Counted from the first letter of the stretch, positions 1,693 through 24,543 are shown. The stretch: DNA of 64,000 bases from Calditrichia bacterium (GCA_050633245.1 JBOEGD010000010.1:221989-285988); one strand, 5' to 3'. The notes: generated by a model from the sequence alone, not told the origin. Numbers and translations are program-made.

Positions 1693-2097
1693 TTAACTTC
1701 TCTTTCCAATTTGATAACGTCTTATATATTCGAGCGTTAACAACCTGAAGTAATCCAGTTTTAATACATGTTCAACTATTTGAGGGAACTGTGTTTCTAG
1801 CTCAGGAAACTTCCCTCGAAGAAGAGGTTGTTGTTCAATAGCAAAGCTCTCCAACAATTCAACAGCTTCTTCTGGCCTTGATCTTTTTCCCTTGTATATT
1901 ATAGAGTCTGCAATTCCACTAATGCTCACTTCTAACAATGATAAATCTTCTAAGGTAAAATTTGAAGACTTCCACTCGGTTTGATGCAAGACTTTACGTT
2001 CCGCATTGGATATTTTCCTTTGCGTATTAAGTTCCTCAGCCAACTTTCCAATAAGTAGTCTTAAAAATAAAGCCTCCTCCGATACTATCAACGACAT
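1693..2097 (-). CDS. Hypothetical helical protein, candidate immunity protein of the upstream RHS toxin
   Basis: 134-aa AT-rich ORF with GAGG RBS; first ORF downstream of, and co-oriented with, the RHS gene. Confidence 0.55.
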   Translation of the reverse strand: MSLIVSEEALFLRLLIGKLAEELNTQRKISNAERKVLHQTEWKSSNFTLEDLSLLEVSISGIADSIIYKGKRSRPEEAVELLESFAIEQQPLLRGKFPELETQFPQIVEHVLKLDYFRLLTLEYIRRYQIGKRS

Positions 2098-2402
2098 AAT
2101 TACCTCTCAGGGATTTATATGCAAAAAACATTAAACTTTAACAATTAGAATTGTCTATTCCAGGCTTTTCTATAAGAGATAGTTACATAATATGATGAAT
2201 TTAATTGGAAACTTTAACAATAGTCTTGCCTCATAACTCGGTGGTGCAAAAATAATAGTGCAGCCTTCTCTAATCCCTTCGACTTCAAAACAGATCGAAG
2301 GATTAGCCTCGATCTGATGTAGTAACCAAACAGAAGGCATTAGAGTCATTTATTGAAAACTATAGTATATATAATTTTTTGCCACAACACCGGATTATCT
2401 TC

Positions 2403-5400
2403 TTAATCCTCGTAAAAAAGGTCGTAATTCCATCCAAAAGACACAATTTTACCTTCAGATTTCCCACCTTTTTTTATGATAAACTGTCCTTTACCTGTTT
2501 TCCACCGATCAGTACCATCACTCCTTACCACTTTCTCTGCCTTTCTATTCGAATTAAAGAATTCTCTAGCTTGATTCATATATTGAAGGGGGTTACTTTT
2601 ATCTTTTGCATGTTTGTTAATATGATATCTAAGTGATCTTACGGGAGATTCAAAGGTTCCCTTATCCCATTCTTCCACCATCTTTCTTAGCTCTTTAAAA
2701 TTTACCTTTGAGAAGGTACCATCAGCAAACCTTCCAGGCAACTTCTGATTCTTAGGCCCAAATCGCAGCCCCTTACCTCTAGTAAAAATAGTTACGGCGA
2801 TAGATGTTGTAAGATATCCCCCAGCATAAAACCATTCTTTCTCACCCCACTCAGGCATTCCTTCAAGTGTGGTAGCAAATCCATCAAGCGCTGCATATCC
2901 AAGATTCATCGCATATCTTTTATGCCAATTGCGACCCTCTGGAGTCCACACAGACCAAAACATGCCCACGGGGGTATTGAAAATAACCCATTCAGATGCA
3001 TCTTCTAGTCTTGCTGCGAGTCCCTCGGCATTGAAAGGGAGGGTTGCCATCCTCCATAGTCCAGTTGAAGTTACTGCCTCTGTTATTGGAGCAACAGCTC
3101 CCGTTCCAGCTGACCACCAATTACTTCCTGTTGTAAATGTAGTAGGTCCGCTCTCCCAGACTGATGCAACGTCGATACTGGATACTATTGCTGAGACTGC
3201 TGGCCGTATACGCCCAATATCAGGTGCATTACCGATTGCGGTACGCCATATAGAGGTAGCGTTATCGTCAATCCATCTTCCGATCGGTAATTTGGGATAT
3301 CCCCACCCACGGCAACCAAAATCTGTCCCACACTCAAACCCCCAATCATTTGAGCTTGAGGACTCGGAGGCTGTTGATTCGCCACTGGATAAAGTATGTG
3401 CCCCGTAACCGTGGTAATATCCTCCGTAGGAATAGTCTCCAAATGGGCTATATGGGAAGTAAATATCTCCCCAATTCTGTGACATCATCCCTGATGGATC
3501 TGTTCGATTCGTTGGATTGCTACCAACATAACTATAGGGTGAGGAGTATTCTAACGCTGGGTCCATTGCATAGAAACGACCCAGTTCGGCATCATACAGA
3601 CGGGCACGGTAGTTATAGAGATCGCTTTCAGAATCCAGCTCCTGCCCGGTAAACTGATAGCTGAGCGGCTGTGTTTCGGTGGAGCGCATCACCTCGCCAA
3701 ATGCCGCATAATCATAACTTCCCACAACCAATCCATTTTCATTTACCAGCACGCGATTGGAGCCCAAGTGGTCTTTCAGCGGAAAGAAGGTTTCGCCATC
3801 TTCCGAAAACGCCAGCAGTCCTGTAGGGCCATAAATGTAGGTTCTTGCCTCGCCTGCAACTGTTCCATCCTTGTCGCGCTCGACAAGAATATTACCGGAC
3901 AATCCGGGTTGATACATGGTGCTGGCAGTGGTACTGCTTCCGCTCGGCAGGAAAGATTTCAAGAGTCGTTCACCAGCATCGCTGTATTGAAAGTCCAGCA
4001 CACCGGCATTGGAACCGGTCATGTTGATGCTGCGCGTTAACTGTAGATGCGGGTCATAATAGATGCTGCTAATGTTTTTGGGAGTGGAGGCATTCATGTT
4101 GCCATTAGCATCGTACTGATAGTCCAGGGCAGCGGTGCCGTTGGTATTGATAACGCGGTTGGTGCCGTCTTCGTAGGTATAATTTCTGAAAACCGAACCA
4201 CGCTTCAAGCTCAAGATATTACCGTTGTGGTCATAGCTGATCTCATTACCGGCACCGATACCAATGTCGTAATCATCTAGTGGGGTTTGCGGGCCAAATT
4301 TGGCTTGCGCCTCTACAAAGTTCGCTACCTGAAGGCGCTGTAAATCGTCATATTGAAACTCGACATCATAATTGGTGGGCGGAGGAATATTACCTAAACT
4401 ATTAGACCACAAATAGCTGTAGCTAAGTCTGGCTATATCGCCATTATAATATCCTGTACCAAGATATCCATTCGACGTAAAGTCCAGCTGCTCCCGAAAA
4501 TATCCTGGCGTATGCATATCGGTCATCCAGCCAACGGGATTGTAATCATAAGACGTGGTAACCGTACTGCCGTTTTCAGGATGAATGGATTCGGAAGTCA
4601 TCTGACCAAGCGCATTATAACTGTAGCTGGCATAAAAGTCATCATCTCCGGGAATGCCTACGGATACGGGCTGCCCGAGCCGATTATAGGAATATGTTAC
4701 TATCCCCGAGGCGTTCCCTCCTGTAGCGCTAGCCACAAAAGTAGCTCCGTTCTCGGCAATAAATCCATCTCTCAACACCACCCCTTGCCCGGCAGTAAAG
4801 GTAATATCACTACCGGAGGCCACGGTCGTATTCGTCGAGTTCAAAGAATCACCCGCTTCATGCGTCGCAGTCCCGGAAAGGGTCTGATTATCCACATTCA
4901 GGTTATCTGAATAAAAATTTATTTGGGTTATAAAGCCGGCATTATCATATGTATAATTGGTTGCATACGACGTCGCCTCAAAATCCAGTACCTCTAAGGA
5001 CTTGTTAAGTACTTCGCCATCCGCATTATAAGCATAGCGTTCTTCGATTTCTGCAGCGATATCTATATCGTTATTACTTTGCGTATACTCAAGTCGATTG
5101 AGCAGAGTTGGATCACTGCCGTCGCCATCGTAAAAATACTTCATTCGCCATTTTATCGGAGTCGGGGGGTATGTCGGGTCCGTATCGGCTTTATTTTGCA
5201 GGGAGGTTCCCCAAATAATCTCATCATCTTCCAGGTATCCTTCCTCGACCACGCGGCCAAAATCATCGTACTTCCAGTAACTGATCAAATCTGGGTCTGG
5301 CAGAGCCCCCTCGGCATGCCGACTGAAGCGAACTTGACCCAGTTGGTCATAAATGTAATCCGTTACCCCATCGTCAGAAGAACTGCTGCTGGTTAGAAGA

Positions 5401-8400
5401 CCACGATGATCATAGGTCAAATCCACAATATAATCGTCTGCTATAGCACCACCCGGGGGTTGATAGTAATTGGGTGGGTAAATTCGTATTGCATTTCCCT
5501 TATCATCATATTCATAAGTGGTTTCAGTTGAGCTGGTTTTTACACCGATCACCTGCCCAACTTTATCTTCAACATAGGTGGTTTGAATGCCTTGGGGATC
5601 GGTTACCACCGTTTTGAAATACTCATTGTCCGGCAAATTATCGAGAAAACCGTCCTGCTCATTAGCTCCAAATTCGATACTAGCAGTATGTCCACCACCT
5701 AATGCAAAGGTTGCTCCAGGCATTCCTTGTTCAATTGCAGGTGAGAACGGAGACGCTTCATAAACTGTTCGGTAATAGGGGCGGTTTTGATCGTCTGGAT
5801 AAGCAGTATTTACTTCCCCATTCATTAACCCGCCTACTGCATCGAAAGGATCGATTACAAATCCGCTGCGATAGCCAAACCAGGCACCGACAGATTCTGC
5901 TATTTTAGTCTGCACAAAAGGGCGATTAAGTTCATCATATAGCGTTTCCGCAAGGTAGATACCGGTTTCAACTTCATACTGCACCTGTCGGGCTTTACTC
6001 AGCCCATCCGAGTAAACAATAGAGTGAGACGGATTTGTATAAACAAAGAGATCATCAATCTTCCAATCGGTTGCAGCACCGGAACCTTCGTTAAACAAAA
6101 CAAGCTTTTTTATTTCATTTGCCGTAGCGGGTAGCGCAACATCCTGCAGGCAGGGTACACCGTTCACATAGAAATCGCTCAGCTGATTATCCAAATCAAC
6201 AATAACCTGGAGTCGATAGGAATAGCCTAATGTGAACTCATCATGCACGGTGTTCGGTGATGAGTTATCGATTGTAACCCAATCTGATGAGTTAAAAACG
6301 GACCAAACCGCATTGCCGGCACCACTCTGGGTATAATCCCAATCGGTTCCTCCAAGTGCAATACCAAAATTCTGACCACTGGTTGCATCGGGAAGCGTCA
6401 GCGTCAACTCTATCCCAACTCTACCAGTAAGTGCTGAATGAAGCTCTTTTATCAACAAGTCCGGCGTTCCAATCACGCCGCCTCCATCATTAGAGTGATG
6501 AAGCTCCTGATCGACAACTTGCCAGGTGGACGCTGCACTATTAGCATTTTCTATGATAGACCAATCCAGCAGGGCGTTCGTAAAATCGATATAGGTTCCT
6601 TCGGTTCCTCTAACCGAGGTTTTTAGAAGCAGATTAGGATCAGAAGTCTGAAACGTCGCATTACGCTCCAGAGAACCGGAACTTAACTGAGATCCGTTGG
6701 GAACATTATCGCTACCAACACCACCAATCAGACGATGCAGCTTATCATAAACCAGCTTGCTTTTATTGCCATGCTGACCGATCGTTGCAATAGGAATGTC
6801 ATATTGACGATCAAAAACCACAGCGCCGAACGAGGCATCTATCGGCCCCACCCATAAATCATCGAAGTAAGCATCAACCTGATCTGTGGTATTGCGAACC
6901 AATGCGGTAATTGATATTAGCGCCTCAGAATATTCGGTCAGATCGCAGAGTGTATACAAATACTCCCATTCTCCGCTACCGGAGTGATAGACATTGTGGG
7001 AATGCTGCCCGCCATTATAATTATATTTGAGGTCGATGTTGGTTTCGCTACTGGTAGATTTTACCCAGGCTCCAAATGCATACTTACCATTTAAATCATC
7101 AAGGTCTGCGACCAGAAATGTCCGGGCAATATAGTAATCGTTAAGGTGCCCCTGGATTTGCCAGCTATGACTTCCGGTATGTGAGATGTCCGAGATATCA
7201 CCGTATTCATCGGTCCATCCGTCTTCTGAGACACCGGATTCAAAACCATTGTAAGAGGTTTCCGATGCTCTCGCGTTACTAAAAGAAGCAACTGGAAAGC
7301 GATCCGAATATTTGGTATTGGAGTATATTTTTCCTAAACCGTTCTTAATGCTACTGGTTTCCACTACAAAACCGGCAGAATTAATGCTTTCCACCTCGCT
7401 AAGCTTCAACCATTCGCTGCCTGGCTCACCGGCATTGCTCCACAGATCGAAATCGAATATCGCCGAAGTATTCGGCGTAGCGTCCCAAGAATAATTCTTA
7501 TGCGGACTCCAAACACCATTGCTCTGCACTTGCCAGGTTGTGGCTGTTGAGCTGGTAAGGGTGCCATTCACCTTAGTTCGGTTCGTAATAACTGGATCTA
7601 TGATGTTAGCTGTCTCTAAATCGGTATATCCTGACCAACTATAAATAAATACATCTTCGTAGGTATCCTCAACACCCTGAGAGTTAAAGTTAGAAACCGT
7701 TCTTCTCTCAAGCTGGTTTCTAATATTGTATTCGAATATAATTACACTCTCAACACCATCCTCTTCTTCTGTAATTCTTGTCGGGTGAAAATGTCCACTT
7801 TGTCCTTTACCGCCAACATTATTGTAAGTAAGTAGGTATTTGTATGTAGTTATGGCAATCGGTGAGGTTTCGCCTTCCTTATGCCTTTCAACTATATATG
7901 GACGACCAACCGAATTAATTGATGTGTTTCCACCAATATAAGGTTTAGCAACCTCTGAATTTGCCAAGTTACTGTGGAAGTAATACACTGTCTTGCCAAA
8001 AGAACCACTTTGATTTGCTGGTAAAATAGTAACTTCATTGTACTGAGCAATACTCGAACTGCGATCTATCGTTGCATGTGCCTCATTATAATCATAATAC
8101 GTACTGGTAGAGGCAAAGCCATCATTTACAGTAATAGCCGTTACCGGATAATCAATCTGATCTCCTTCTGCGGCACCATTAACGAGATGATAGAGCACAT
8201 AATTCTCAGACGTGGCATTAACGCGTCTATGAACCAAAATATTGCCTCGAACGAGTGTTGTCCCTTCCTGTCCCACTGTTATTTCCGGCTGCCACTGCCC
8301 ATTTTTAAAAAAGCTGACCTTGGCACCTGTTGAAATATTAGAGACAGGATCGACATCTGCATATACATAGAAGTTGTTTCCTACATACAAACCAATATCT

Positions 8401-11153
8401 TCGCTTTGCATCGGGATATCATTACCATTGTTCCAACCAAGGTGCGTGCGAGCATAGACTTTCCGTATGTTGTCGGAGCCGGCCAAAATAGAATATTTAT
8501 TAGGAGAAGCATTTACCTGAACTCCATGCAAATTATTAAAGTCGGCAATATCTTCCCATTGAAGTGAATTAGGATTAAAATAATGTGCAGTTATTGAGCC
8601 GTCATTTGTTGAAATACCGCTCCGGTGTCGCAAAATCAGATCTTTACTATTGGTACTATTCCTGTAGCTGGTGGAAAAGGATTCCTTTATCCAATCCTGA
8701 CCAGTCCATCGTAAACCTTGGGCATCCACAATACCATAAATTGAAATCATTGATTCAATAGTACTTACTAGTGAAGCATAAGGAACCGAGCCAATAACAC
8801 TATTGGTCGTAAATCCAGCCTGGGTAAAGTCTTCATCCCATTGGTAAATATAGTCTGTATTATTCTGAGTCACTCCAATGGCAAAAGTTTTACCAGCATA
8901 CCAATCATTGTTATTCTGAGTATGGTTGGGGAGGTTTGGCAGGTCGACAGAATGACGAGTATTTTCTTCGTCAAGATAGTGCATGCGAACAGCCATATCA
9001 TTACCGGGATTTCCGTTTTCATCCCGGTGAGTAATCATCCAATTTAGAATACCGGTATTAAAAAAGTCATCATCATTAGAAGTAACAAGCGGTCCGATAG
9101 GAAGAAAATCGCTCTTATTCCAGCTATCCCCATCCCATTTGATCTCAAAACCATATCCCTGTTCTCGCCCAACCAGAGAAAGAACATTGGAGCCAGCAAC
9201 CACATTGACATTGTTTTGCCAATCTCCCCCCCCCTGAACGCCAAGAGTACAATTCCTGATGGCTTTAGCCCGCCAAGTATGGCTATTAAAAGCACGATGT
9301 ACTAAATGCACGCTCTTCGTTTGGGCGTCGGTAAAGTAATCTTCAATAATACCAAAAAAGTTATTTGAGGTAACCACTGTTCCGCGAAGAATAGAAGTAT
9401 TTTCAAAAAAGTTTGGAAAGCTCGTATTTCCAGAGGAATGATCCCAGGTATTCTTACGCCAGTGTCCAGTCCAAACATAACTCTCTATTACTGCACTATT
9501 ATCCGCTGTATTTCTCCAGGCAACAACTAGATAATCACTACCATAGAAAAGCTCCGGATAGTTATCATATGGGTTTTCTTCGTCCGGCTTTTCAAGAATC
9601 AACTCGCGATCAGATTTCTCAAGCGTAGTCTCTTCATAAGTATACAAAACATCACCGCCAGAGGGCAGGAATATTTGCTCCAATGCACCATAATTGGGAT
9701 GTGCAGTGAGGTAGGTGAAGTTCAATCCCGGGAGGGACATGCCGTCGGGGTTTTGATGAGTAATAGAACTGAGCAAGCGCTTGGTTAAGTCGCCCTGCCC
9801 CATAAAGTTATAGTCAAACTCAATAGTAAAAAGGGTAGACGCTTCCGGACTCAACACCTCTATCTGATCAAGATATCGTGTCTCATAACGTTCCTGGTAA
9901 GCATCCGGTTCAGGCTGTTCGGCATGTGGATCCTGATATTCTTCGGATAGCTTTTCAGCATAGGTAAACTCCACAGAACGGCCATTCGAATCCACAATTT
10001 TCTTCAAATAACTCGCAACTGTGTGGTTAGTGGTGCCTGAAACGTTTGTCGTGTAAGTAAAGTCTGCATCTGACAATGCACTGATTTTTTTTATCTTGCG
10101 CATTTTGGTAGGAGGTCCTGATACGATAGAAACAAAATAATCTTTATTGGCGTACCCTGTGAAGGCACTATTTACCGGATAGTCGTTTTGATCAGAATAA
10201 ACAGTATGTACAACAGGCCCAGATGAGGAGTTTTTACGGACGATAATGGACTCATCATTATTCAGCGTACCGCTGATTCCAACCTGTTGGGTATTAAAAA
10301 TACTGAAGTCATCTTCTTCGCCTAAACGAATATAGGTGTTGGCTGCACCAAAATTATAGCCAACCGGTTCCTCTAATGCTTCGTATTCGTAAGTAACCTC
10401 ATCACCCCAGAGGTTTACAGATCTGGACTGATTCCATGCTGCTACAAACTGCTGCTGCCCGGCGGTTTCTGAACTTTCTCCAATCCAGTTTCCCCATTTT
10501 ACACCATACTGCAGGGTATTGCGTCCGGTCTCCTCACCGTATTCGACGATGGAGCCGTCTCCCTTTGTTACTTCCCATTTTTCTATGGAGGGGAAATACA
10601 GGATTTTCCAATTGTTGTAGGCTTTGGTTTCATAACGCAACGCAGTACCTTCAGAGCCATTGCGAATAAGCTCGACGCCTTCATGGTAGAACACATCATC
10701 GTGGCGGGTTCCAGTGCCTTTATGATCCCGGGTAATAGCAGAAAAGCCAAAGTTCCAACCAAGCCCCAAAACACCGGTTGGTGCTTCTACGTTCCACGTG
10801 TCAACTGTTCCATGTACATTGCTTGAGTATTCGATATTAACGCTCACATCCAAGCCACGTTTACCCGGTATATTGATTAGCGATATTGGCAGGTTGATAT
10901 CACCTGTGGCGAGTTGAAGGCTACTGGCGGTTGCTCCAATGCCGCCGCCACTTGCAAACGTTGCAATCGGGGGAATAGTATAGTCAACATCTCCAGAGCT
11001 ATTTGAAGATGAGCCTTGATGCCCAAGAGCTTCCGAAACGCTCTGCGTTGAAGACGCATCTACCTGACCCTGCGCGTAGACTATTTCAAGTGTGAATGAG
11101 ACTGCTACCAATAAAACACAAATATATAATTTCGGGCTTCCCGTCAATTGCAT
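2403..11153 (-). CDS. Giant RHS/YD-repeat polymorphic toxin (signal peptide, SpvB/TcB-like N-terminus, RHS core, C-terminal toxin tip)
   Basis: RHS core KDHLGSNRV..YDYAAFG..YQFTGQELD..LYNYRARLYDAELGRF..DP..SPYSYVGSNPTNRTDPSG; N-terminal IPGKRGLDVSVNIEYSS..GVLGLGW; ATG at 11153 with AGGGAG RBS (ORF is open to 11183). Confidence 0.92.
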   Translation of the reverse strand: MQLTGSPKLYICVLLVAVSFTLEIVYAQGQVDASSTQSVSEALGHQGSSSNSSGDVDYTIPPIATFASGGGIGATASSLQLATGDINLPISLINIPGKRGLDVSVNIEYSSNVHGTVDTWNVEAPTGVLGLGWNFGFSAITRDHKGTGTRHDDVFYHEGVELIRNGSEGTALRYETKAYNNWKILYFPSIEKWEVTKGDGSIVEYGEETGRNTLQYGVKWGNWIGESSETAGQQQFVAAWNQSRSVNLWGDEVTYEYEALEEPVGYNFGAANTYIRLGEEDDFSIFNTQQVGISGTLNNDESIIVRKNSSSGPVVHTVYSDQNDYPVNSAFTGYANKDYFVSIVSGPPTKMRKIKKISALSDADFTYTTNVSGTTNHTVASYLKKIVDSNGRSVEFTYAEKLSEEYQDPHAEQPEPDAYQERYETRYLDQIEVLSPEASTLFTIEFDYNFMGQGDLTKRLLSSITHQNPDGMSLPGLNFTYLTAHPNYGALEQIFLPSGGDVLYTYEETTLEKSDRELILEKPDEENPYDNYPELFYGSDYLVVAWRNTADNSAVIESYVWTGHWRKNTWDHSSGNTSFPNFFENTSILRGTVVTSNNFFGIIEDYFTDAQTKSVHLVHRAFNSHTWRAKAIRNCTLGVQGGGDWQNNVNVVAGSNVLSLVGREQGYGFEIKWDGDSWNKSDFLPIGPLVTSNDDDFFNTGILNWMITHRDENGNPGNDMAVRMHYLDEENTRHSVDLPNLPNHTQNNNDWYAGKTFAIGVTQNNTDYIYQWDEDFTQAGFTTNSVIGSVPYASLVSTIESMISIYGIVDAQGLRWTGQDWIKESFSTSYRNSTNSKDLILRHRSGISTNDGSITAHYFNPNSLQWEDIADFNNLHGVQVNASPNKYSILAGSDNIRKVYARTHLGWNNGNDIPMQSEDIGLYVGNNFYVYADVDPVSNISTGAKVSFFKNGQWQPEITVGQEGTTLVRGNILVHRRVNATSENYVLYHLVNGAAEGDQIDYPVTAITVNDGFASTSTYYDYNEAHATIDRSSSIAQYNEVTILPANQSGSFGKTVYYFHSNLANSEVAKPYIGGNTSINSVGRPYIVERHKEGETSPIAITTYKYLLTYNNVGGKGQSGHFHPTRITEEEDGVESVIIFEYNIRNQLERRTVSNFNSQGVEDTYEDVFIYSWSGYTDLETANIIDPVITNRTKVNGTLTSSTATTWQVQSNGVWSPHKNYSWDATPNTSAIFDFDLWSNAGEPGSEWLKLSEVESINSAGFVVETSSIKNGLGKIYSNTKYSDRFPVASFSNARASETSYNGFESGVSEDGWTDEYGDISDISHTGSHSWQIQGHLNDYYIARTFLVADLDDLNGKYAFGAWVKSTSSETNIDLKYNYNGGQHSHNVYHSGSGEWEYLYTLCDLTEYSEALISITALVRNTTDQVDAYFDDLWVGPIDASFGAVVFDRQYDIPIATIGQHGNKSKLVYDKLHRLIGGVGSDNVPNGSQLSSGSLERNATFQTSDPNLLLKTSVRGTEGTYIDFTNALLDWSIIENANSAASTWQVVDQELHHSNDGGGVIGTPDLLIKELHSALTGRVGIELTLTLPDATSGQNFGIALGGTDWDYTQSGAGNAVWSVFNSSDWVTIDNSSPNTVHDEFTLGYSYRLQVIVDLDNQLSDFYVNGVPCLQDVALPATANEIKKLVLFNEGSGAATDWKIDDLFVYTNPSHSIVYSDGLSKARQVQYEVETGIYLAETLYDELNRPFVQTKIAESVGAWFGYRSGFVIDPFDAVGGLMNGEVNTAYPDDQNRPYYRTVYEASPFSPAIEQGMPGATFALGGGHTASIEFGANEQDGFLDNLPDNEYFKTVVTDPQGIQTTYVEDKVGQVIGVKTSSTETTYEYDDKGNAIRIYPPNYYQPPGGAIADDYIVDLTYDHRGLLTSSSSSDDGVTDYIYDQLGQVRFSRHAEGALPDPDLISYWKYDDFGRVVEEGYLEDDEIIWGTSLQNKADTDPTYPPTPIKWRMKYFYDGDGSDPTLLNRLEYTQSNNDIDIAAEIEERYAYNADGEVLNKSLEVLDFEATSYATNYTYDNAGFITQINFYSDNLNVDNQTLSGTATHEAGDSLNSTNTTVASGSDITFTAGQGVVLRDGFIAENGATFVASATGGNASGIVTYSYNRLGQPVSVGIPGDDDFYASYSYNALGQMTSESIHPENGSTVTTSYDYNPVGWMTDMHTPGYFREQLDFTSNGYLGTGYYNGDIARLSYSYLWSNSLGNIPPPTNYDVEFQYDDLQRLQVANFVEAQAKFGPQTPLDDYDIGIGAGNEISYDHNGNILSLKRGSVFRNYTYEDGTNRVINTNGTAALDYQYDANGNMNASTPKNISSIYYDPHLQLTRSINMTGSNAGVLDFQYSDAGERLLKSFLPSGSSTTASTMYQPGLSGNILVERDKDGTVAGEARTYIYGPTGLLAFSEDGETFFPLKDHLGSNRVLVNENGLVVGSYDYAAFGEVMRSTETQPLSYQFTGQELDSESDLYNYRARLYDAELGRFYAMDPALEYSSPYSYVGSNPTNRTDPSGMMSQNWGDIYFPYSPFGDYSYGGYYHGYGAHTLSSGESTASESSSSNDWGFECGTDFGCRGWGYPKLPIGRWIDDNATSIWRTAIGNAPDIGRIRPAVSAIVSSIDVASVWESGPTTFTTGSNWWSAGTGAVAPITEAVTSTGLWRMATLPFNAEGLAARLEDASEWVIFNTPVGMFWSVWTPEGRNWHKRYAMNLGYAALDGFATTLEGMPEWGEKEWFYAGGYLTTSIAVTIFTRGKGLRFGPKNQKLPGRFADGTFSKVNFKELRKMVEEWDKGTFESPVRSLRYHINKHAKDKSNPLQYMNQAREFFNSNRKAEKVVRSDGTDRWKTGKGQFIIKKGGKSEGKIVSFGWNYDLFYED

Positions 11154-14279: not shown

Positions 14280-14310
14280 TTTTTCCTCCCTACCAAATAG
14301 TTCAAAGTTG

Positions 14311-14328: not shown

Positions 14329-14362
14329 GTACATTACTGGTTCAGATTTCTGTATTCTGTGT

Positions 14363-15448: not shown

Positions 15449-15459
15449 ATTCCCCCTTT

Positions 15460-16776: not shown

Positions 16777-16789
16777 TGTTGTCTCCCTA

Positions 16790-17269: not shown

Positions 17270-17825
17270 TCTTGCCTCGTTTATGTATAATTACATCAAG
17301 ATCCAGTTCGAACTTTGTCTTGACGCTGCCTTTCCTGATTATCTGCTGGGAGAATCGCCGAATCTGATAGTTACTTCCTTTCGATTCAAGTACAAAAACA
17401 AGCCTGCTCACCTGCTTGAAACTACCTGAGGCCTGAAGTTTTATCGGCAGCAGAATCAACCGGCCCCGAAGCTGCGGTTTTTCAGGCTTCAGGACAACCA
17501 ACTCGACTCCGCATCTGCGAATTTCTTTGGTCAATGCTTCTATAATCTCGCCCTGATTAGTAAAGTCAGTCAGGCGCGTTTTCATAGAGTCTACCTGAGC
17601 ACGCATTGTCTTATTCCTTTGCCTGAACTGTAAAATAGAATTATTCAAAACCTCAGGTGATGTCTGAAGCTCCTGTTCATTGACAACAGACTTGCGCAAT
17701 TCATACAATGCATCAACCTCCCGAAGCAGTAATCTACTGCATACAAGAATGACCACAATTAGCATGCAGACAGGCCAATAAACGTTGTATTTAGAGTATT
17801 GCAAGAACAACCTCAAAGTAGACAT
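17253..17825 (-). CDS. PilO/GspM-like protein
   Basis: TM, coiled coil, LPIKLQASGSFKQVSRLVFVLE ferredoxin-like PilO pattern. Confidence 0.7.
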   Translation of the reverse strand: MSTLRLFLQYSKYNVYWPVCMLIVVILVCSRLLLREVDALYELRKSVVNEQELQTSPEVLNNSILQFRQRNKTMRAQVDSMKTRLTDFTNQGEIIEALTKEIRRCGVELVVLKPEKPQLRGRLILLPIKLQASGSFKQVSRLVFVLESKGSNYQIRRFSQQIIRKGSVKTKFELDLDVIIHKRGKNEDNG

Positions 17826-19092
17826 ATCCGTTATGGTAGTTTTCCCGCTTGATTCTGCCGCGGAATTCCGATTTAGTAAGCAGCTGCTTTAACTCGATGC
17901 CGCTGACCATGAGAGTTGATTGGAAATTGTTTAGTAGCAATGCGACTTTCTCATCTCCTTCAGCGTATCCGGAGAAGTTCCAGCTTGCCTCCTCCCGCTC
18001 ATTTATTATCTGGGAAAACCATACTCCCTTCGGCGTGATTTCGGCAAACTGCAAAAGCTGTAAAGCTGTAAAAGAAGATGGGATCGCCAGAGAATCAAGA
18101 ATATGCTTGTGCCCACGTAACTCTTGATTCGACCGTTTTAGACTCACCAGCTCGTTTTTCTGCCCTATCAAATTTATATTTTGGGTCTGAAGTTTCAGCT
18201 GTAGATCAGAGTAATAATAGACGGCTCCCGCAATAGCCCCATACATAATCAGTGTTAACATGCCCAGAAGCAGAATACCGCGAAACGCGAGATACTTGAT
18301 CAACACCGTTTGGTCAGCTTTTGTCACCTCACCCTGACGCAGATCTATTTCTGAGGAATCTTTGTTTAATAATGTTAGTGCAGCACCAAAGGCAGCTTGC
18401 TGTGAATCTTTCAGAGGTAAGTCATGAATCCGGCACAACGATGCGCCATATTTGTCTTGTACGCCACTTACTGCATTCTGCTCATCAAGAAGACCTAGCG
18501 TGCTCTCTTCCTTATCACTTAATATCAACTTCCAATACCCCTCAGGGCTGGATGTGCTCAAGCGGGCATCCGAAAGAGAATAATATTTTGTTAACTGATT
18601 AAGTGCATTTAATCGGCTAAACAAGTGCGATCGCTCTGTTGGTATTCCATCCGGGAATTTCGCCAGGCTTCCCAAGCGCCAAAAGGTTATCAGATCAGTT
18701 TCTTTATTCAGAAGCACCTTAATGAAATCAATGTCTGGCTGCTCATCGACCGAAGCACCTCCCAATTTCATTTCCTCTTCAGACATATTACCCGAAAGCA
18801 TATAATGCGTAGCCGATGAGGGCGCGAGAACAGCAATATGAGCGACGTTTCTAAGAAATTCGTCCAGCTTTTGTTCTTTAAATTCGGCCAAAGAAATGCA
18901 ATAACAACGCTGCTTCACGATACAAAATCCACTGAATGTCTTTCTCAGTGTTACAATGCAAATCTCTGAATCAGTTGCGTCGATTCCAACAAACAGATCA
19001 CCGGGAAATGACACCTCTTTCAGGAAACTTAAGGTCTTTTCTACAAACTCCGTGAGTTGCTCCCTCATTGCCTCTCCCCTCCCGGCAACCAA
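17791..19092 (-). CDS. PilM/PilN (GspL-like) fusion protein
   Basis: N-terminal VGID actin-like start, AFGAAL, TM, coiled coil, PKGVWFSQI..FSGYA PilN pattern. Confidence 0.65.
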   Translation of the reverse strand: MVAGRGEAMREQLTEFVEKTLSFLKEVSFPGDLFVGIDATDSEICIVTLRKTFSGFCIVKQRCYCISLAEFKEQKLDEFLRNVAHIAVLAPSSATHYMLSGNMSEEEMKLGGASVDEQPDIDFIKVLLNKETDLITFWRLGSLAKFPDGIPTERSHLFSRLNALNQLTKYYSLSDARLSTSSPEGYWKLILSDKEESTLGLLDEQNAVSGVQDKYGASLCRIHDLPLKDSQQAAFGAALTLLNKDSSEIDLRQGEVTKADQTVLIKYLAFRGILLLGMLTLIMYGAIAGAVYYYSDLQLKLQTQNINLIGQKNELVSLKRSNQELRGHKHILDSLAIPSSFTALQLLQFAEITPKGVWFSQIINEREEASWNFSGYAEGDEKVALLLNNFQSTLMVSGIELKQLLTKSEFRGRIKRENYHNGYVYFEVVLAIL

Positions 19093-20942
19093 TCTTCTGT
19101 ATACAAAAGGTGAGGTGTTACGTAAATAATTAACTCACTTTTGGCTTTTGTTCTGCTGGTATTGCTAAACAGCTTTCCAAGCAGTGGAATGCGGCCAAGC
19201 AAGGGCACCCGGCTGACACTTTCAGAATCGATTTCCTGAATTAATCCGCCCAGGACAATCGTCTCCCCATCGCGGAGACGAACAGTTGAGCTTAGACTGC
19301 GACTCTGAATATTGGGTGGCAAACTCGGGTCGAGTTGTTCGCCGGGTGTATTGAACTCAGGATAAATTTCAACAGTGATTTCCCCTGACGCACTTACCCA
19401 GGGAGTTACCTTAAGCGAAATATTTATTTCAATAGTTTGAAATCGTTCCGTCGTTTGTAGAAAGACTTGTGATGGGTCGCGAAGTGGTGTTTCGGAAATG
19501 AGTTTATAGTATTGAGTTTCTCCAACCTTCAGCTCAGCACTATGGCCATTAAGAGTAGATATTTGCGGGCGAGAGCGAACTTTGGCTTTGCCGGCACTTT
19601 CCATTGCACGAACCCGCAAATAAAAGTCCTCCGGAAGCTTACCAATGTTCACTCCCGTGAGAGCCTTATCGAGTTTCCCCAAATACTTGTTCGCGACCGA
19701 ACCATTCCAGAGGAAGTCGATACCTGGAATCCAACCGTCTCCCCTTGCACGCGTAGAGTCGCCATAATCTAGCCCGGCCTGCACTGAGAACTCATAACTA
19801 TCCGAGACGGTATAGTCCACCACAAGCGCTTCAAAAAACACTTGTGGTATCGGATTATCAATTTCCTTAAGAATATTCTTAATTTGCATAATGACATCAG
19901 GAGAGCCGTTTACCAGCAACGCATTATGTTCGGGTACAACCTTTATGTCTGATGATGCCGTTACCTTATTCGGTAAACGTTCGATAACACCATCAACTTT
20001 GAGATGATTCAGCCGAAAAAGCCGAGATGTTTGCATGCTCCGTGCATCATTCTTGGCAATAAGATACAGGTTTTTCTTGCGTCGCCAACTAAAACCCGTT
20101 TCCAAAAGTACTGTTTGCAGGCATTCCTCCAGAGTCGCGTCGGTCAGGTTGAGAGTAAGGGAGCCCTGGGGCTCACCGATAATCGACAGGCTTGCTTTTT
20201 CTGTTGAAGCCAATTCACTGAGCACTTTTGCAATTGGAACCTTTTGCGCCTGGATACTTATTCGCCCATCTTTCTTCTGAACCCATAACCCCCTACCCGG
20301 CTCTTTTTTGTCGATAAACATCCGCTCTATCAACCAGGCTTTTCCGTTGCGATTTAAGCGTAATCCATTCGTGCGCATGAGAAGAGTTAATCCCTCTTCA
20401 AAGGGTAAGTTGGTAATCTTTCCGCTGATTGAACCGCTAATAGATTGGTCCGCAAGAATGGTATATCCGGTAGAATCTGCTAATCTCGCCAACACCAACT
20501 TTAGTGGCTCATCATCTACATCCACAGACAAATGTTCATTTCGCCAGTTGATTTTGCAGTTCGGTTCAGGTATCGGTTGTATTTCCGGCATAACGGTTAA
20601 GACACCGTTTTCAAACTCGAGTTGCAATCCATGCCGTTTGGCGATGTGAGTAAGCACATCAATAATCCGAACGTCTGTTAACTGCGTCGTAATCTTTGCA
20701 GCAACCTCCGGACTTACAAATACGTTCAGATGATACTGTTTGGCAATTCCGCGAATGACATCTCGAATATCAGTACTGCGGAAATCCACTGACTTGATTT
20801 TCTCGAAGTACGCTGCCGGCACACCAGACAAACTGCTATCGGCAAGGCTGTCCGCCTCACCAAATGCAGATGCGCGTCCCAGAAAGAGTAGAATCAAAGA
20901 TAAAATCACTAAGAATTTTAGACGCATGGCAAGTGGGCTCAT
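19065..20942 (-). CDS. gspD: Secretin (GspD/PilQ family) with STN domains
   Basis: DFRSTDIRDV, NALLVNG, PQVFFEALVV, SRPQISTLNG, LKVTP, TVRLRDGETIVLGGLI, VPLLGRIPLLGKLF, SELIIYVTP. Confidence 0.93.
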   Translation of the reverse strand: MSPLAMRLKFLVILSLILLFLGRASAFGEADSLADSSLSGVPAAYFEKIKSVDFRSTDIRDVIRGIAKQYHLNVFVSPEVAAKITTQLTDVRIIDVLTHIAKRHGLQLEFENGVLTVMPEIQPIPEPNCKINWRNEHLSVDVDDEPLKLVLARLADSTGYTILADQSISGSISGKITNLPFEEGLTLLMRTNGLRLNRNGKAWLIERMFIDKKEPGRGLWVQKKDGRISIQAQKVPIAKVLSELASTEKASLSIIGEPQGSLTLNLTDATLEECLQTVLLETGFSWRRKKNLYLIAKNDARSMQTSRLFRLNHLKVDGVIERLPNKVTASSDIKVVPEHNALLVNGSPDVIMQIKNILKEIDNPIPQVFFEALVVDYTVSDSYEFSVQAGLDYGDSTRARGDGWIPGIDFLWNGSVANKYLGKLDKALTGVNIGKLPEDFYLRVRAMESAGKAKVRSRPQISTLNGHSAELKVGETQYYKLISETPLRDPSQVFLQTTERFQTIEINISLKVTPWVSASGEITVEIYPEFNTPGEQLDPSLPPNIQSRSLSSTVRLRDGETIVLGGLIQEIDSESVSRVPLLGRIPLLGKLFSNTSRTKAKSELIIYVTPHLLYTEDWLPGGERQ

Positions 20943-21110
20943 TTTCTTTTCATAATCTTTTATGTTGAGGCGAATAACTGTTCAGTTAGTTTTATGTTAT
21001 TGAACTTCTAATACTCGTTTCAATCTGATATTCTTATAAACGATGAAAATTCTCAAAAAAAATTTCAAAAAATTAAAAAAAAGTTTGACTTTTAGAAAAA
21101 AATCAAACAT

Positions 21111-21551
21111 ATGTTAAATATGAACATTTTTTCCAAACATGCGCTGGGCAGTAAAATAAAATTGGTTATCAAAAATTCTCCGTTTACGCAGAAAGTATTA
21201 GCGAAGGACTTAAAGATAACTGAAACGACCCTTTCAAACTATGTAGCAGGCAGGCGGCTCCCGGACGCTCAGCTAGTTGCAGGTTTGGCAAAACTCTGCA
21301 ATGTCAGTTTAAATTGGCTATTGCTAGGAGAAGGCGACATGTCATTGGAGAAATCGATCCACCCAGCACCGCACCAGGAATTTATCGAGCAGTTAAAGGA
21401 AGAGGTAGAAATGCTTCGCGCTCAAAACAATCAGCTATTAGAGCAGCTAATTAATTTGACATCGACGAGCAGTAAACAGGATAACAAACTCAAGACTCTT
21501 GAAAAAGATGTTCAGATCATAAAGCAGAAGCTTGATAATGAAGATACTTAG
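21111..21551 (+). CDS. XRE-family HTH transcriptional regulator with C-terminal coiled coil
   Basis: TQKVLAKDLKITETTLSNYVAGRRLPD..VSLNWLLLGEG. Confidence 0.85.
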   Translation: MLNMNIFSKHALGSKIKLVIKNSPFTQKVLAKDLKITETTLSNYVAGRRLPDAQLVAGLAKLCNVSLNWLLLGEGDMSLEKSIHPAPHQEFIEQLKEEVEMLRAQNNQLLEQLINLTSTSSKQDNKLKTLEKDVQIIKQKLDNEDT

Positions 21552-22896
21552 GGCTAAGCAGTCTTTGAATGACAAAGGTTCTGCGCTTAATGCAGTTCTA
21601 ATGCTTTCATTGCTTGTAAGCCTCACGCTACTAATTTTTCTTAGTGTGTATGTCCGACAGTTTCACTTTGCAAATTCGACTCTTCGAGGAACCCAAGCGC
21701 ACTATCATGCGGAAAGCGGCATCATTGAATGGCTTCATGCAATGGAAAATTATCAGACAGGCTCCCAGCAAAACACATTACAATCGACTCTTCTGCTATC
21801 ATGTGGAGACAGCATTGCAATATCCTCACTGCGCTGGGGAGTCTTTCAACGGGTTTATTCTCGCGAGCATAAAAATGCCAACGGCATTCGCGCTACAATT
21901 GGCTACGCATATGCCAAGCAATTTAATGCCAGTTTGATTGTCCAACCTCTCAATCAGTCGCTGATAGTCTGTGAGGATACACGACTTTACGATCGTGTTA
22001 TCTGCGGACCACAAGGAGTTCGCGCACAACGCTTGCAAGGTGTACCCTATTCCGGAGAAAAACCTGTATATGGCAAACTTTATAAATCTACCCTGGATCA
22101 TCGCCCAAAAGTCCGTCATCAACAACTAAAAGATATTGTGCGGCATTATCGTAAGGGCATTTCAGATTGGCAACACATACAGCTACAAAAGAATGCCATA
22201 AGCCCCGAGAATGTCATTCAACTACCTCAATCCAAGGTGCTATATAAGACGGATCAACTTATTGATTCAAAATCTCCTTTAACCATTATAGGCCCCGGGA
22301 AATTGCTGGTTACAGACGCTTCATTTTTTGAGCAAAAATTAAAGATAAGAAATGAGGTTGAGGTTTTGATTTCAGCAAGATGTCGAATTGGTTCCAACGT
22401 TGAATTACAGAACGTTATACTCTTCTCGACACTGCCATTAAGTCTTAAAGATGTACAAGCGAGCCAGCTCCAGATTATCTCAACAAATGAGGTAATAGTT
22501 GAAGGAAACAGCTCTCTCGGTGAAAATTCGGTTGTACTTTCAATTCCTGATGAAGATGGAATCGGTATTTCAATTCGTGATCGAGTTGCTATTTCGGGAA
22601 GCGTATGCCTGGTAAATAGCAATAACAATCCGGCTGCTTGGAACAACACTATCCAGATTACGCGGAATGCAAGGGTAGAAGGACTGGTCTTCAGCGACTG
22701 GCTATTAAATTTGGGAGGAACAGTAAATGGATGCACTATAGCTAGTCGCTTTCATTTTTATAAATCACCTACTCACTTCTATAACTGGATTCGCAACGCC
22801 ACTATTCGTCAAAGCTCCGAAGCTCTTAGCGGTATTCCTCTTTTTTTCGATTTACCGGACAGCAATCGCGCCGTTGTTTACCGGGAGGAATTATGA
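21532..22896 (+). CDS. PilX/GspK-like minor pilin with a beta-helix-like C-terminal region
   Basis: DKG|SAL hydrophobic helix, QAHYHAESGI PilX motif; coupled to two minor pilin genes. Confidence 0.65.
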   Translation: MIMKILRAKQSLNDKGSALNAVLMLSLLVSLTLLIFLSVYVRQFHFANSTLRGTQAHYHAESGIIEWLHAMENYQTGSQQNTLQSTLLLSCGDSIAISSLRWGVFQRVYSREHKNANGIRATIGYAYAKQFNASLIVQPLNQSLIVCEDTRLYDRVICGPQGVRAQRLQGVPYSGEKPVYGKLYKSTLDHRPKVRHQQLKDIVRHYRKGISDWQHIQLQKNAISPENVIQLPQSKVLYKTDQLIDSKSPLTIIGPGKLLVTDASFFEQKLKIRNEVEVLISARCRIGSNVELQNVILFSTLPLSLKDVQASQLQIISTNEVIVEGNSSLGENSVVLSIPDEDGIGISIRDRVAISGSVCLVNSNNNPAAWNNTIQITRNARVEGLVFSDWLLNLGGTVNGCTIASRFHFYKSPTHFYNWIRNATIRQSSEALSGIPLFFDLPDSNRAVVYREEL

Positions 22897-23249
22897 CCCT
22901 GCAAGATGAAAAAGGATACACTCTGATAGAGGTACTTACAGCGTTGGTATTGCTCTTCCTGATACTCACCCCAACCACTTACGTAATTACCAAGCTAATA
23001 ACCGGTGCTGATATCGAGGATAGAAGAAATGCCAATATTATTTGTATCAATACCGCAGAGAAGGCTCTCCTAATGGGCGAGACCGGCTCTGCTGAGGAGA
23101 ACTATCTGTTCAAGGGCAGGCGCTATCAAATTCGGAAGAAGCTGGAATCAAAGAGAGAAGGCTTGCAGCTTTTCTCTGTGACCGTCTCGCGCCATAAGCG
23201 CATACTAAGTGAACTACACCACGTCTTACCTGCTTTGGAGGAGCGATAG
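22893..23249 (+). CDS. Minor pseudopilin (GspI/PilV-like)
   Basis: EKG|YTLIEVLTALVLL class III signal. Confidence 0.8.
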   Translation: MTLQDEKGYTLIEVLTALVLLFLILTPTTYVITKLITGADIEDRRNANIICINTAEKALLMGETGSAEENYLFKGRRYQIRKKLESKREGLQLFSVTVSRHKRILSELHHVLPALEER

Positions 23250-23770
23250 TGAACTCGTTATTAATTGAGTATCAGAATCATCCGATCAGAAATGAAAAGG
23301 GGTATACGCTAATCGAACTTTTAATCGCTATGCAGCTCGCAATGATGATAATCGGCCTTGCTGTTTGGGGATATGGGTTTACGACAAAAGTTTTAAATAA
23401 GTGGCAACAGAATGTTGTAAGTCAAATTGAACTGATCCGCCTTGAAAATTCAATTCGTATTCCTTTAAATCGTATTCTGATAATTAAGCAAGCAGATGAA
23501 CGTTTCCTGGCCGGCCAAACGTGCGACGGATCAAAAATTATAATTAAACACGATACCTCAAGTTTGCAATTTAACAGCAAAGTTATTACGGGAATAAAGA
23601 AGCATAGAATACGCTATCATCTCGGAAACAATAATGACATCACTATGGTGGAAAGTGTTCCAAAAGCCTGGTTAAAACACATTCGGGCCATAGAAGTTGA
23701 GTTGCATCCTACTTTAGAAAACGCAAAGCCCATTCGTTTCTTACAGAGAATAAAATGGGGTAAAATTTAA
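23249..23770 (+). CDS. Minor pseudopilin (GspJ/PilW-like)
   Basis: EKG|YTLIELLIAM class III signal. Confidence 0.8.
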   Translation: MNSLLIEYQNHPIRNEKGYTLIELLIAMQLAMMIIGLAVWGYGFTTKVLNKWQQNVVSQIELIRLENSIRIPLNRILIIKQADERFLAGQTCDGSKIIIKHDTSSLQFNSKVITGIKKHRIRYHLGNNNDITMVESVPKAWLKHIRAIEVELHPTLENAKPIRFLQRIKWGKI

Positions 23771-24543
23771 AAAAAGCCAAGTATATGCAACAACTCAGAC
23801 TCACTGGGGAACAAAAGTAATATTGTGGATGCGCACAAAAAACTTCCGAACGGTAGTTCATTATTTATTCTCTTCTTGTCATATAGATAGGTAAGCCCAG
23901 CATATAACAGTCCCAGAGTTGATGCTAAAAAAAGCGATGCTAAGAAACCAGATATTCCCAGCGCCATTCCGATAACCATGCCCAATTTCACATCACCTAA
24001 ACCCATGCTCTCACGACCCAAACAATAATTTCCTACTCGCCTTATCAGTAGTAGTAATGCTGAAGCCATGAAGCCATCTAATAAACGTACCGCAAACTGA
24101 TCTTCGACAAACCCCTGAATCAACAAGATGACGCCTGCCGTCGCTACCAGAAAATTCGGGATTCTATAGTGTTGCCAATCAATCACGAGAATCGTAGCGA
24201 GGACTGAACCAATAATCAGAACCGACAAGGCCTGCAAGGAGAATCCAAAATAAATCACAGTGATGGTAAAGAACATGCCGGAAAAGAGTTCAACGAGAGG
24301 ATATTGAACTGAGATTTTCGATCTGCAGCTTGCACATCGCCTACCGAGTAAAAAATAACTCAAAATAGGAATGTTATGGAATGCCGAAATAGCATGGGTA
24401 CATACCGGACAATAAGATCGCCTCGGATTCAGTAACGAAATCCCACGAGGAATGCGATAGATACAGCTATTTAAAAAACTGCCAATCAGCAGTCCTAAAA
24501 TAGCAACAGATAAGAGGATAAGTTCAGGCGCGACTTTAGACAT
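23767..24543 (-). CDS. pilD: Prepilin peptidase/N-methyltransferase
   Basis: IGSFLN..IYRIP, SYCPVC, NIPILSY..GRRCASC, YPLVE, ID..IP, MGLGDVKL, LPFG. Confidence 0.92.
   Translation of the reverse strand: MSKVAPELILLSVAILGLLIGSFLNSCIYRIPRGISLLNPRRSYCPVCTHAISAFHNIPILSYFLLGRRCASCRSKISVQYPLVELFSGMFFTITVIYFGFSLQALSVLIIGSVLATILVIDWQHYRIPNFLVATAGVILLIQGFVEDQFAVRLLDGFMASALLLLIRRVGNYCLGRESMGLGDVKLGMVIGMALGISGFLASLFLASTLGLLYAGLTYLYDKKRINNELPFGSFLCASTILLLFPSESELLHILGFF

Follow-up and report, generated by a model that had tools for sequence, protein, structure and literature searches.

A stretch of 64,000 nucleotides from a Calditrichia bacterium (GCA_050633245.1, JBOEGD010000010.1:221989-285988), referred to below as the window, carries a type IV filament gene set followed by genes for a tail-fibre-like protein, a giant RHS protein and a candidate immunity protein. 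[quoted passage not shown] The analysis presented here favours, with a probability of about 0.5, two separable units: a conserved PilT-less filament cluster and a cassette of fibre, RHS and candidate immunity genes that is likely autonomous and probably has no dedicated exporter next door. Its firmest new result is a conserved gene pair, in which a fibre gene is followed by a gene whose product, either an RHS protein or a cargo of the type IX secretion system (T9SS), carries the rare GCX_COOH domain of about 50 residues (hereafter GCX).

Under the two-unit reading, the RHS protein and the fibre would both be exported by Sec, and the fibre, probably as a trimer, would dock on the GCX domain protruding from the RHS shell. 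The fibre, once docked, would hold the toxin, or present it, at the envelope or surface of the cell. Cleavage by the Rhs core at its DPSG motif would follow, the C-terminal toxin of about 360 residues would be delivered to a competitor and the producer would be protected by the small downstream protein. An obligatory passage of the toxin through the pilus-like machine is improbable. The repeated presence of RHS genes in this cluster type is most likely explained by a looser tie, i.e. a shared use in cell contact or a favoured and tolerated insertion site.

The genome of the window (G000; 6.35 Mb, 59 contigs, 97% complete), in which the window is G000:C10:221989-285988, was compared with a phylum sample of 86 genomes, a family sample of 16 genomes and a second phylum sample of 121 genomes. 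The latter represents the phylum of G086, a metagenome-assembled genome labelled Ignavibacteria; in GTDB this phylum is the Bacteroidota. Genes were called from a listing of open reading frames (ORFs) together with Pfam and NCBIfam profile scans, and prepilin and Sec-type leaders were judged by eye.

A conserved pair of fibre gene and GCX domain

The GCX domain was found in all five RHS proteins encoded directly after a fibre gene and in none of the seven RHS loci that do not directly follow one. It was also found in three proteins with a T9SS tail encoded after fibre genes, and in one weaker case under the curated cut-off. The genome of the window contains exactly two GCX sites and two fibre genes, which are paired. 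In the 16 family genomes, eight of the 12 GCX sites come after a fibre gene, and throughout the Calditrichota 10 of 17 sites follow one of 16 fibre genes (nine of these pairings were established from sequence and one, in G052, from coordinates only). The second phylum holds 12 GCX sites: six are directly preceded by a fibre gene of the same strand, three have no fibre and three lie on contigs too short to assess. These second-phylum pairs include an RHS protein of 2,028 residues behind two fibre genes and another of 2,923 residues behind three. A metagenome scan with the fibre returned three loci, one of which consists of a fibre gene and then a YD-repeat protein. The proposal that the fibre is a partner of the RHS protein is thus well founded, as the gene pair is conserved and tied to the GCX domain of the RHS. 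A literature search, whose scope did not extend to supplements, found no paper on the 'coathanger' domain or on the fibre-GCX pair.

Two of the seven RHS loci lacking GCX are cassettes in which Skp-like and lipoprotein genes intervene after the fibre gene. In these (L093:8605-9955 and L095:4722-6070) the order is fibre, Skp-like chaperone (203 and 189 residues, respectively), lipoprotein (235 and 274 residues) and an RHS protein without GCX; such an arrangement could represent a different layout, assisted by a chaperone.

The fibre belongs to a family of more than 6,700 relatives that are mostly unannotated, a few being named at the source as S74/'chaperone of endosialidase' or 'bZIP'. Neither an S74 domain nor, besides one chance-level match, any Pfam family up to E 10 was recognised in the fibre of the window. 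The family alignment shows a conserved C-terminal module extending from the GNVGIG motif to the coiled coil. The AlphaFold2 (AF2) model of the fibre (mean predicted local distance difference test score, pLDDT, 72) was compared by Foldseek with the PDB, where 8ond, 8oml, 8onc and 8onf, all fibres of Bdellovibrio, were matched with E values of 1.5e-5 to 9e-4. A beta-helical shaft is recognised through the match to Bd2133 (E 1.5e-5, probability 1.0), and 134 viral matches of the tail-fibre type were obtained in BFVD at E 0.001 or better. TM-scores were low (0.2-0.3) because the structural matches are local. By analogy with these structural relatives, the fibre is probably a trimer. It has no T9SS C-terminal domain (Por_Secre_tail), though neighbouring genes show one. 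In another genome a member of the fibre family is encoded within the filament cluster itself, between the pilin and ATPase genes (L091, G013:C214, 9515-9883), and no RHS is present on that 15.6-kb contig.

Both the RHS protein (MQLTGSPKLYICVLLVAVSFTLEIVYA/QG) and the fibre (...IALFLLMWLVVTVSPGLFA/QP) carry Sec-type leaders, in agreement with the earlier note. The leader of the RHS protein is followed by an SpvB-like domain, about 1,400 residues (270-1700) without family, DUF6443 (26.9 bits), the YD shell, the Rhs-associated core and the C-terminal tip. The YD repeats were recognised by PF05593 (50.5 bits, cut-off 22) and also by TIGR01643, and the GCX domain, described as a '3-coathanger stack', is an insert in the YD shell. 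The core ends in ...NRTDPSGMM, a DPxG self-cleavage motif ahead of the toxin region, and from knowledge of the family the protein would be expected to cleave itself there. The tip had no Pfam match up to E 10 and no sequence relative in the PDB, and an Atlas search gave just toxin-tip-like leads, below 0.9. No N-terminal domain peculiar to cluster-linked or fibre-linked RHS proteins was found by BLAST. Over the entire RHS protein, the TcB mid and integrin-like propeller domains gave no Pfam match at E 0.01 or better; the TcA partner (VRP1, PF03538) had no match in the genome, control genomes being equally silent. The absences on which the earlier note had relied were confirmed for PAAR, since neither PF05488 nor PF05943, the sheath protein of type VI secretion systems (T6SS), had a match in the 97%-complete genome, and for a C-terminal sorting tail, as no Por_Secre_tail is present on the RHS. 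The candidate immunity gene exists as a co-oriented ORF encoding 134 residues. Its start lies 305 bp past the RHS stop, it belongs to no Pfam or NCBIfam family and its putative role is suggested by position.

Other RHS genes were encountered in these genomes. Two more RHS proteins with Sec leaders bear Scabin-like ADP-ribosyltransferase tips (L003:10712-16972 on G000:C9 and L096:10767-17966 on G008:C34); upstream of the gene on G000:C9 lie two genes for outer-membrane beta-barrel proteins and no fibre gene. On an 11.6-kb contig of the same genome (L002, G000:C33, 6523-8764), a 1,905-aa RHS is followed by two orphan modules made of an Rhs core plus a tip, one tip being Peptidase_M91-like; this is a usual displaced-tip array.

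The filament cluster and its separability from the cassette

Positions 12361-24543 of the window hold a full, PilT-less type IV filament gene set in which all named ORFs are intact (Table 1). The secretin type of this cluster was found in 13 of the 86 phylum genomes, and 12 orthologous clusters, each read over at least 15 kb, were compared. Nine of them neither contain nor adjoin an RHS (G000:C18, G008, G015, G009, G013, G080, G083, G084 and G085). In G080, RHS tail pieces occur 12.6 kb from the cluster, beyond housekeeping-like genes. A conserved housekeeping setting, with RNase HII, rpoN and hslVU downstream, surrounds the cluster in three genomes that belong to one genus. The filament cluster is shown to be an old component of some Calditrichota genomes, usually without an adjoining RHS. 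Conversely, fibre-RHS cassettes occur on other contigs, with no filament-gene match in the surrounding 12-20 kb, in G008, G015, G006 and G004, and likewise apart from filament genes in G003, where the contig end cuts off the upstream side. One of these genomes, G006, is 97% complete, and neither this type of secretin nor this type of ATPase was matched in it. Rhs cores are still present in 31 of the 73 genomes that lack the cluster type. In the second phylum, where two genomes hold the same type of cassette, no filament gene was found in the 20 kb read around any of the 12 GCX sites.

The filament genes, the fibre, the RHS and the small ORF are all present as intact ORFs and are encoded on the same strand from the secretin on, as had been described. 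The fibre and RHS genes are indeed co-oriented with the filament set and come next after it, but the ATPase and fibre genes are set apart by a 326-bp gap that holds two strong terminator-like hairpins. Taken together, the RHS-less clusters, the separate cassettes, the cluster-less G006 and these hairpins refute the description of the locus as dedicated and self-contained. The check on co-localisation proposed in the earlier note, for which a usual lack of adjacent RHS genes in homologous clusters was to count as refutation, gave precisely this lack in nine of 12. As the fibre-toxin pair is also found far from such clusters, the pilus-like machine can be regarded as a possible route of export at most, and an unproven one.

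The sigma54 activator, which had been assigned to the toxin module, belongs to the filament cluster: its orthologues are present in seven of the 12 clusters, whether an RHS is there or not, and no shared sigma54-type promoter was found. The promoter pattern TGGCAC-N5-TTGCW, with two mismatches, matched the window 38 times vs 35 expected. One degenerate match lies 50 nt ahead of the fibre gene; none was found ahead of 18 other cassette or cluster starts, nor ahead of pilin genes. In one genus (L104/L105, G080:C7, 32174-33643; L108, 1142-2611; L113, 12423-13892), rpoN is located a few genes downstream of a cluster encoding one or two sigma54 activators.

The filament parts reach none of the curated equivalog cut-offs, and domain-level matches were obtained for all of them except the PilM and PilP parts. 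The secretin scored 234.8 bits with the PilQ model vs 180.2 bits with GspD (cut-off 351), HofQ too scoring above GspD. The ATPase was matched almost equally by PilB (533 bits) and GspE (530 bits, cut-off 630), each under its own cut-off, and the platform protein reached 293 bits with GspF (cut-off 424). The major pilin is not of the GspG type (TIGR01710, 35.6 bits vs a cut-off of 88.85); its closest solved chains are type IVa (T4a) pilins (Myxococcus PilA, 8tj2, E 2.3e-11), vs E 0.42 for the GspG chain 5wda. From the GspC/L/M and GspH-K tip set, only the PilO and PilN Pfam signals and a weak GspI match (23.5 bits) were seen. The PilM/N/O/P set listed in the earlier note stands for PilO (26 bits) and, weakly, for PilN; the PilM and PilP parts lack profile confirmation. 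No profile confirmed the PilM-like N-terminal half of the 433-aa protein, which has no PDB sequence match either. The 159-aa protein in the PilP slot matches no Pfam or NCBIfam family, and weak tblastn matches to it occur in the same slot of orthologous clusters.

The large minor pilin has only six relatives by word search, and a PDB sequence search gave no useful match. Its AF2 model (pLDDT 82.6) shows a long N-terminal helix and a beta-solenoid. With VIA-align, many beta-helix proteins were matched at Z 10-12, among which ComZ, a competence pilin of Thermus, is the sole pilin (6qvi; Z 10.6, root-mean-square deviation 3.9, 213 residues aligned, over the widest model range). The claimed absence of PilT was verified at the locus: the two PilT-family genes of the genome that score above cut-off, both genuine, are on contig C1, beside other pilus clusters. 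Because of its PilQ-like secretin, PilA-like pilin, ComZ-like minor pilin and lack of PilT, the machine was named a PilT-less T4a/competence-pilus-like filament system. It looks like such a system and not like a canonical T2SS, its parts being nearer to T4a or competence pili in pilin E values, secretin scores and the ComZ-like minor pilin.

In 10 orthologous clusters a lipoprotein of about 170-185 residues is encoded between the pilin and ATPase genes (L102:16264-16791, L086:1022-1534, L089:13962-14498, L107:4793-5353 and others). One copy has a weak LpoB-like match. This lipoprotein, which is absent from the cluster of the window, could be a pilotin. A paralogous cluster is present in the genome of the window (L001, G000:C18:1-20000, 5459-10354, minus strand), its secretin and ATPase being 51% and 54% identical, respectively. 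There, the sigma54 activator is replaced by three tandem paralogues of about 500 residues, with Sec leaders and no family, between the PilP and platform genes; these resemble embedded cargo. Past the ATPase gene, 1.3 kb remain before the end of the contig, and beyond the peptidase there is an rve integrase. As for the RHS-bearing contig C33 being the continuation of C18, the small ORFs at both contig ends have no similarity to the fibre.

Table 1. Filament, fibre and toxin features of the window, with positions counted from its first nucleotide
Feature	Position	Strand	Evidence or remark
Candidate immunity ORF, 134 aa	1693-2097	-	No signal peptide; role inferred from position only
RHS protein, 2,926 aa	2403-11183	-	PF05593, SpvB, DUF6443 and TIGR03696 matches
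RHS, C-terminal toxin region, about 360 aa	2406-3485	-	No family; hydrophobic stretches, final H..KH motif
RHS, Rhs-associated core (residues 2492-2566)	3486-3710	-	TIGR03696, 70.1 bits (cut-off 32.5)
RHS, GCX_COOH insert (residues 2109-2152)	4728-4859	-	NF045639, 38.1 bits; placed at 4725-4859 by the genome search
RHS, SpvB-like domain (residues 94-269)	10377-10904	-	PF03534, E 4.9e-6, 26.4 bits (cut-off 22)
Tail-fibre-like protein, 267 aa	11231-12034	-	Sec-type leader, beta-rich shaft, GNVGIG motif, conserved C-terminal domain, coiled coil
Two terminator-like hairpins, ATPase-fibre gap	12147-12313	-	12313-12277, stem 15 bp; 12173-12147, stem 12 bp
Assembly ATPase (GspE/PilB type)	12361-13863	-	T2SSE, E 2.9e-132
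Major pilin	13866-14327	-	Leader ...EEG/FSLTE; N_methyl and ComP_DUS (30.1 bits)
Platform protein (GspF/PilC type)	14363-15448	-	T2SSF, E 4e-53
Sigma54 enhancer-binding activator, inside operon	15460-16776	-	Sigma54_activat, E 3.7e-63, and HTH_8
Small membrane protein, 159 aa, PilP slot	16790-17269	-	'PilP-like' by position only
PilO-like protein	17253-17825	-	PF04350, 26 bits
Alignment-complex protein, 433 aa, PilN-like C-terminus	17791-19092	-	PilN 20.6 bits, under cut-off 22.8
Secretin	19065-20942	-	PF00263, E 1.6e-44; N0, STN, Secretin_N and Secretin domains
Xre-type helix-turn-helix regulator heading minor-pilin operon	21111-21551	+	HTH_19, HTH_3
Large minor pilin, 454 aa	21532-22896	+	Leader KG/SALNA, no Glu at +5; long N-terminal helix, beta-solenoid body
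Small prepilins, 118 and 173 aa	22893-23249, 23249-23770	+	Leader KG/YTLIE; N_methyl; weak GspI/prepilin-type matches
Prepilin peptidase	23767-24543	-	A24_N_bact, E 1.7e-29, and Peptidase_A24

The block is flanked by genes for XdhC, a pair of MoxR-type AAA and CoxE-type VWA proteins and molybdopterin dehydrogenase subunits (window 1-654, 24633-26701 and 31267-34514). A split of an xdh/cox gene group by these 24 kb found no support: the best XdhC and CoxE orthologues lie on separate contigs in all six relatives with both and are thus unlinked there. Several proteins encoded nearby carry T9SS sorting tails, and interspersed with them is an 865-aa BNR/dockerin protein (window 27013-27834, 27893-30490 and 51099-53471), and the organism therefore has an active repertoire of T9SS cargo. 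Further on, amid a run of genes without family, a 746-aa protein contains the middle domain of hydrazine synthase alpha (window 46838-49078, E 5e-22).

Weighing the tie between RHS genes and the cluster

The reading as two separable units has to be weighed against a body of observations that speak for a closer tie. RHS loci in or against the cluster were found in G000, G073 (two) and G051 (two), thus in three families and at four positions, and all five are co-oriented with their filament neighbours. In G073, one RHS comes after the ATPase gene; a fibre plus RHS cassette, with an adjoining IS110 transposase, occupies the space that separates the prepilin peptidase from the minor-pilin operon. 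In G051, one RHS stands between the PilP and platform genes with no terminator ahead and another directly upstream of the secretin; the mid-operon position is hard to square with neutral insertion. Over a 45-kb span in the 12 genomes besides G000, 0.33 Rhs cores were expected and seven were observed, at four loci in two genomes (P about 6e-8 for cores, 4e-4 for loci and 0.04 for genomes). No RHS or fibre was present in 80 unrelated GspE/PilB loci (1.2 Mb), which served as a control and are generic loci of many phyla, taken from a scan with the ATPase that matches conserved motifs. Near the other secretin loci of the family there is no Rhs core within 25 kb on the contig, the closest being at 30 kb (G015:C13). 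RHS genes are carried by 12 of the 13 genomes with the cluster vs 31 of the 73 without it (Fisher P 0.0016, kinship ignored). The genome shows no further known pathway by which a folded periplasmic giant could leave, T6SS markers and a T9SS tail not having been found. Both second-phylum genomes in which an RHS is the fibre-GCX partner possess secretins elsewhere. On the side of separability, the three genomes whose fibre-GCX partners are of mid size have no secretin at all. Finally, the GCX insert as docking site of the fibre is a prediction from the gene pairing; complex prediction with three fibre copies and the GCX segment (0.01, 0.37 and 0.01 in three runs) was evidence neither way. The association of RHS genes with the cluster put forward in the earlier note stands in part: it recurs in three families above chance but is absent in nine of the 12 clusters.

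The model of the earlier note, in which the adjacent filament machine is the outer-membrane conduit (T2SS-like or assisted by a pilus tip) for the Sec-exported RHS and fibre, the toxins being cargo genes in its operon, draws on much of this evidence: the recurrence of co-oriented RHS genes in or against the cluster type, the mid-operon RHS of G051 with no terminator ahead, the enrichment of RHS in cluster-bearing genomes, and the lack of PilT in the cluster, of T6SS and PAAR in the genome and of a T9SS tail on the RHS. It is also favoured by the cargo-like Sec-leader proteins of about 500 residues that occupy the same slot in the C18 cluster, and by the reported loss of activity of the bacteriocin Bcn-A in a mutant of the T2SS secretin XpsD (PMC7259588, in the part of that work available). 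It is judged unlikely, if worth serious attention, given the RHS-less majority of clusters, the cassettes standing apart in five relatives including the cluster-less G006, the 31 RHS-bearing genomes without the cluster type and the second-phylum cassettes without nearby filament genes, where the secretin genes are at least 150 kb off or on another contig. The terminator-like hairpins after the ATPase gene, the lack of a shared promoter motif and the resemblance of the parts to a T4a/competence pilus over a T2SS point the same way. That resemblance is what recommends a functional link without export, whereby the cluster would build a pilus for contact or DNA uptake, the toxins would be co-selected or co-regulated with it and the RHS would exit by another route; killing of neighbours might feed DNA uptake, or the pilus might pull targets close. 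Killing is coupled to competence in other bacteria, as with the T6SS of Vibrio cholerae. The ComP_DUS-type major pilin (30.1 bits), closest to T4a pilins, the better fit of the secretin to PilQ and HofQ than to GspD, the ComZ-like beta-solenoid of the large minor pilin and the above-chance co-location of RHS genes would all agree with such a link. It nevertheless appears improbable: ComZ shares its score range with many unrelated beta-helix proteins, no regulatory motif in common was found, most clusters are RHS-less, and competence genes were not seen at the locus, where no search was aimed at them.

Pure coincidence, i.e. a mobile RHS cassette having landed beside an unrelated pilus cluster, would account for cassettes at many unrelated places, for the IS110 transposase by the G073 cassette and the integrase by the C18 cluster, and for the terminators between the two units. 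It is very improbable in view of five RHS loci in three clusters of three families, against 0.33 core hits expected in the 12 genomes besides G000, and of the empty controls, both the 80 unrelated GspE/PilB loci and the 25-kb surroundings of the other secretin loci of the family. The two separable units, loosely tied, thus remain the preferred reading. A bolder proposal would join the two: in Calditrichota that lack a T6SS, Sec-exported SpvB-RHS toxins would pass the outer membrane with a PilT-less pilus-like machine as their gate, and a trimeric fibre would grip them via their '3-coathanger' and aim them at neighbours. This proposal is regarded as doubtful. If true, gate and fibre grip would constitute a new contact-dependent toxin delivery system, and the fibre-GCX coupling would be shared with T9SS cargo across the Fibrobacterota-Chlorobiota-Bacteroidota (FCB) group.

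Comparison with known systems

The core parts of the filament cluster are common to T4a/competence pili (PilMNOPQ, PilB, PilC, PilD; ComZ in Thermus) and to T2SS. The pilin, the secretin and the large beta-solenoid minor pilin are like those of T4a/competence pili, whereas the lack of PilT and a large minor pilin without Glu5 are T2SS-like traits. The T2SS protein GspK has no Glu5. Unlike both T4a pili and T2SS, the cluster has a PilN-like protein of 433 residues, putatively a fusion, as well as a sigma54 activator within the operon, and its scores stay under the equivalog cut-offs. The nearest precedent for export by the adjacent machine is, by analogy, offered by the pilus operons of TcpF (toxin-coregulated pilus, TCP, of Vibrio cholerae) and CofJ (CFA/III of enterotoxigenic Escherichia coli, ETEC), where a secreted cargo encoded in the operon is exported with a large tip minor pilin. 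Those systems are T4b pili with a small soluble cargo, whereas the candidate cargo of the window is a 320-kDa RHS and its link to the cluster is facultative. The literature search mentioned above likewise found no paper on RHS genes linked to or embedded in a pilus cluster.

A Sec plus T2SS route for an RHS protein had been regarded as uncharacterised in the earlier note. However, T2SS dependence is already published for Bcn-A, an RHS-family bacteriocin of Xanthomonas perforans whose activity is lost in an xpsD mutant (Marutani-Hert et al., PMC7259588). According to the available part of that report, Bcn-A and the RHS of the window are both diderm RHS proteins, probably with a plug, propeller and YD-barrel layout in common; Bcn-A is found in the supernatant and its immunity gene lies downstream (PMC7259588). 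Its secretin dependence makes a Sec-plus-secretin route experimentally plausible for an RHS. Bcn-A differs in its length of 1,398 residues, in using the general Xps T2SS encoded elsewhere and in its accessory genes ORF2 and ORF4, and neither a fibre partner nor a GCX domain is reported in that part of the source (PMC7259588).

Toxins combining a signal peptide, SpvB and RHS have been catalogued as the TcdB/TcaC class, leader-bearing toxins being labelled 'T2SS' on sequence grounds (Zhang et al. 2012, PMC3482391). In the sections of this catalogue that were available, the class shares with the RHS of the window the signal peptide, SpvB, RHS repeats and a variable C-terminal toxin, and tail-fibre repeats and bacteroidetes are also listed for it (PMC3482391). 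In contrast with the TcB-TcC cocoon of Tc toxins, the RHS of the window has no match to the TcB mid domains at E 0.01, has a small fibre as partner and bears a GCX insert in its shell.

For the fibre, the closest described proteins are the mosaic adhesive trimer (MAT) fibres of Bdellovibrio bacteriovorus, surface-displayed trimers for which the available text gives anchoring and the route across the outer membrane as unknown (PMC10769870). The MAT fibres (8ond, 8oml, 8onc, 8onf) and the fibre of the window have in common a Sec-type leader and a shaft of the beta-helical kind, 20-25% identical where the two align. MAT fibres are about 900-1,000 residues long vs 267 for the fibre of the window, whose conserved part, unlike theirs, is the C-terminal domain with the coiled coil and not an N-terminal domain, which in MAT fibres measures about 130 residues. 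It differs further in being paired with a GCX-bearing neighbour, in having no terminal binding tip and in that S74 was not detected.

The exit and target delivery of Sec-dependent RHS toxins in T6SS-less diderms are poorly understood, and this locus offers two testable handles on them. The widespread, undescribed fibre-GCX pair points to a docking or presentation step common to RHS toxins and T9SS cargo in two phyla. For a secretin-dependent route, no better candidate is available than the pilus-like cluster type, in which RHS genes have lodged repeatedly. If neither handle holds, what is left is an ordinary polymorphic-toxin cassette beside an ordinary pilus cluster. Set against the known systems, the locus is a polymorphic RHS toxin cassette with an undescribed pair predicted to act in fibre docking, repeatedly lodged in a divergent pilus-like cluster.

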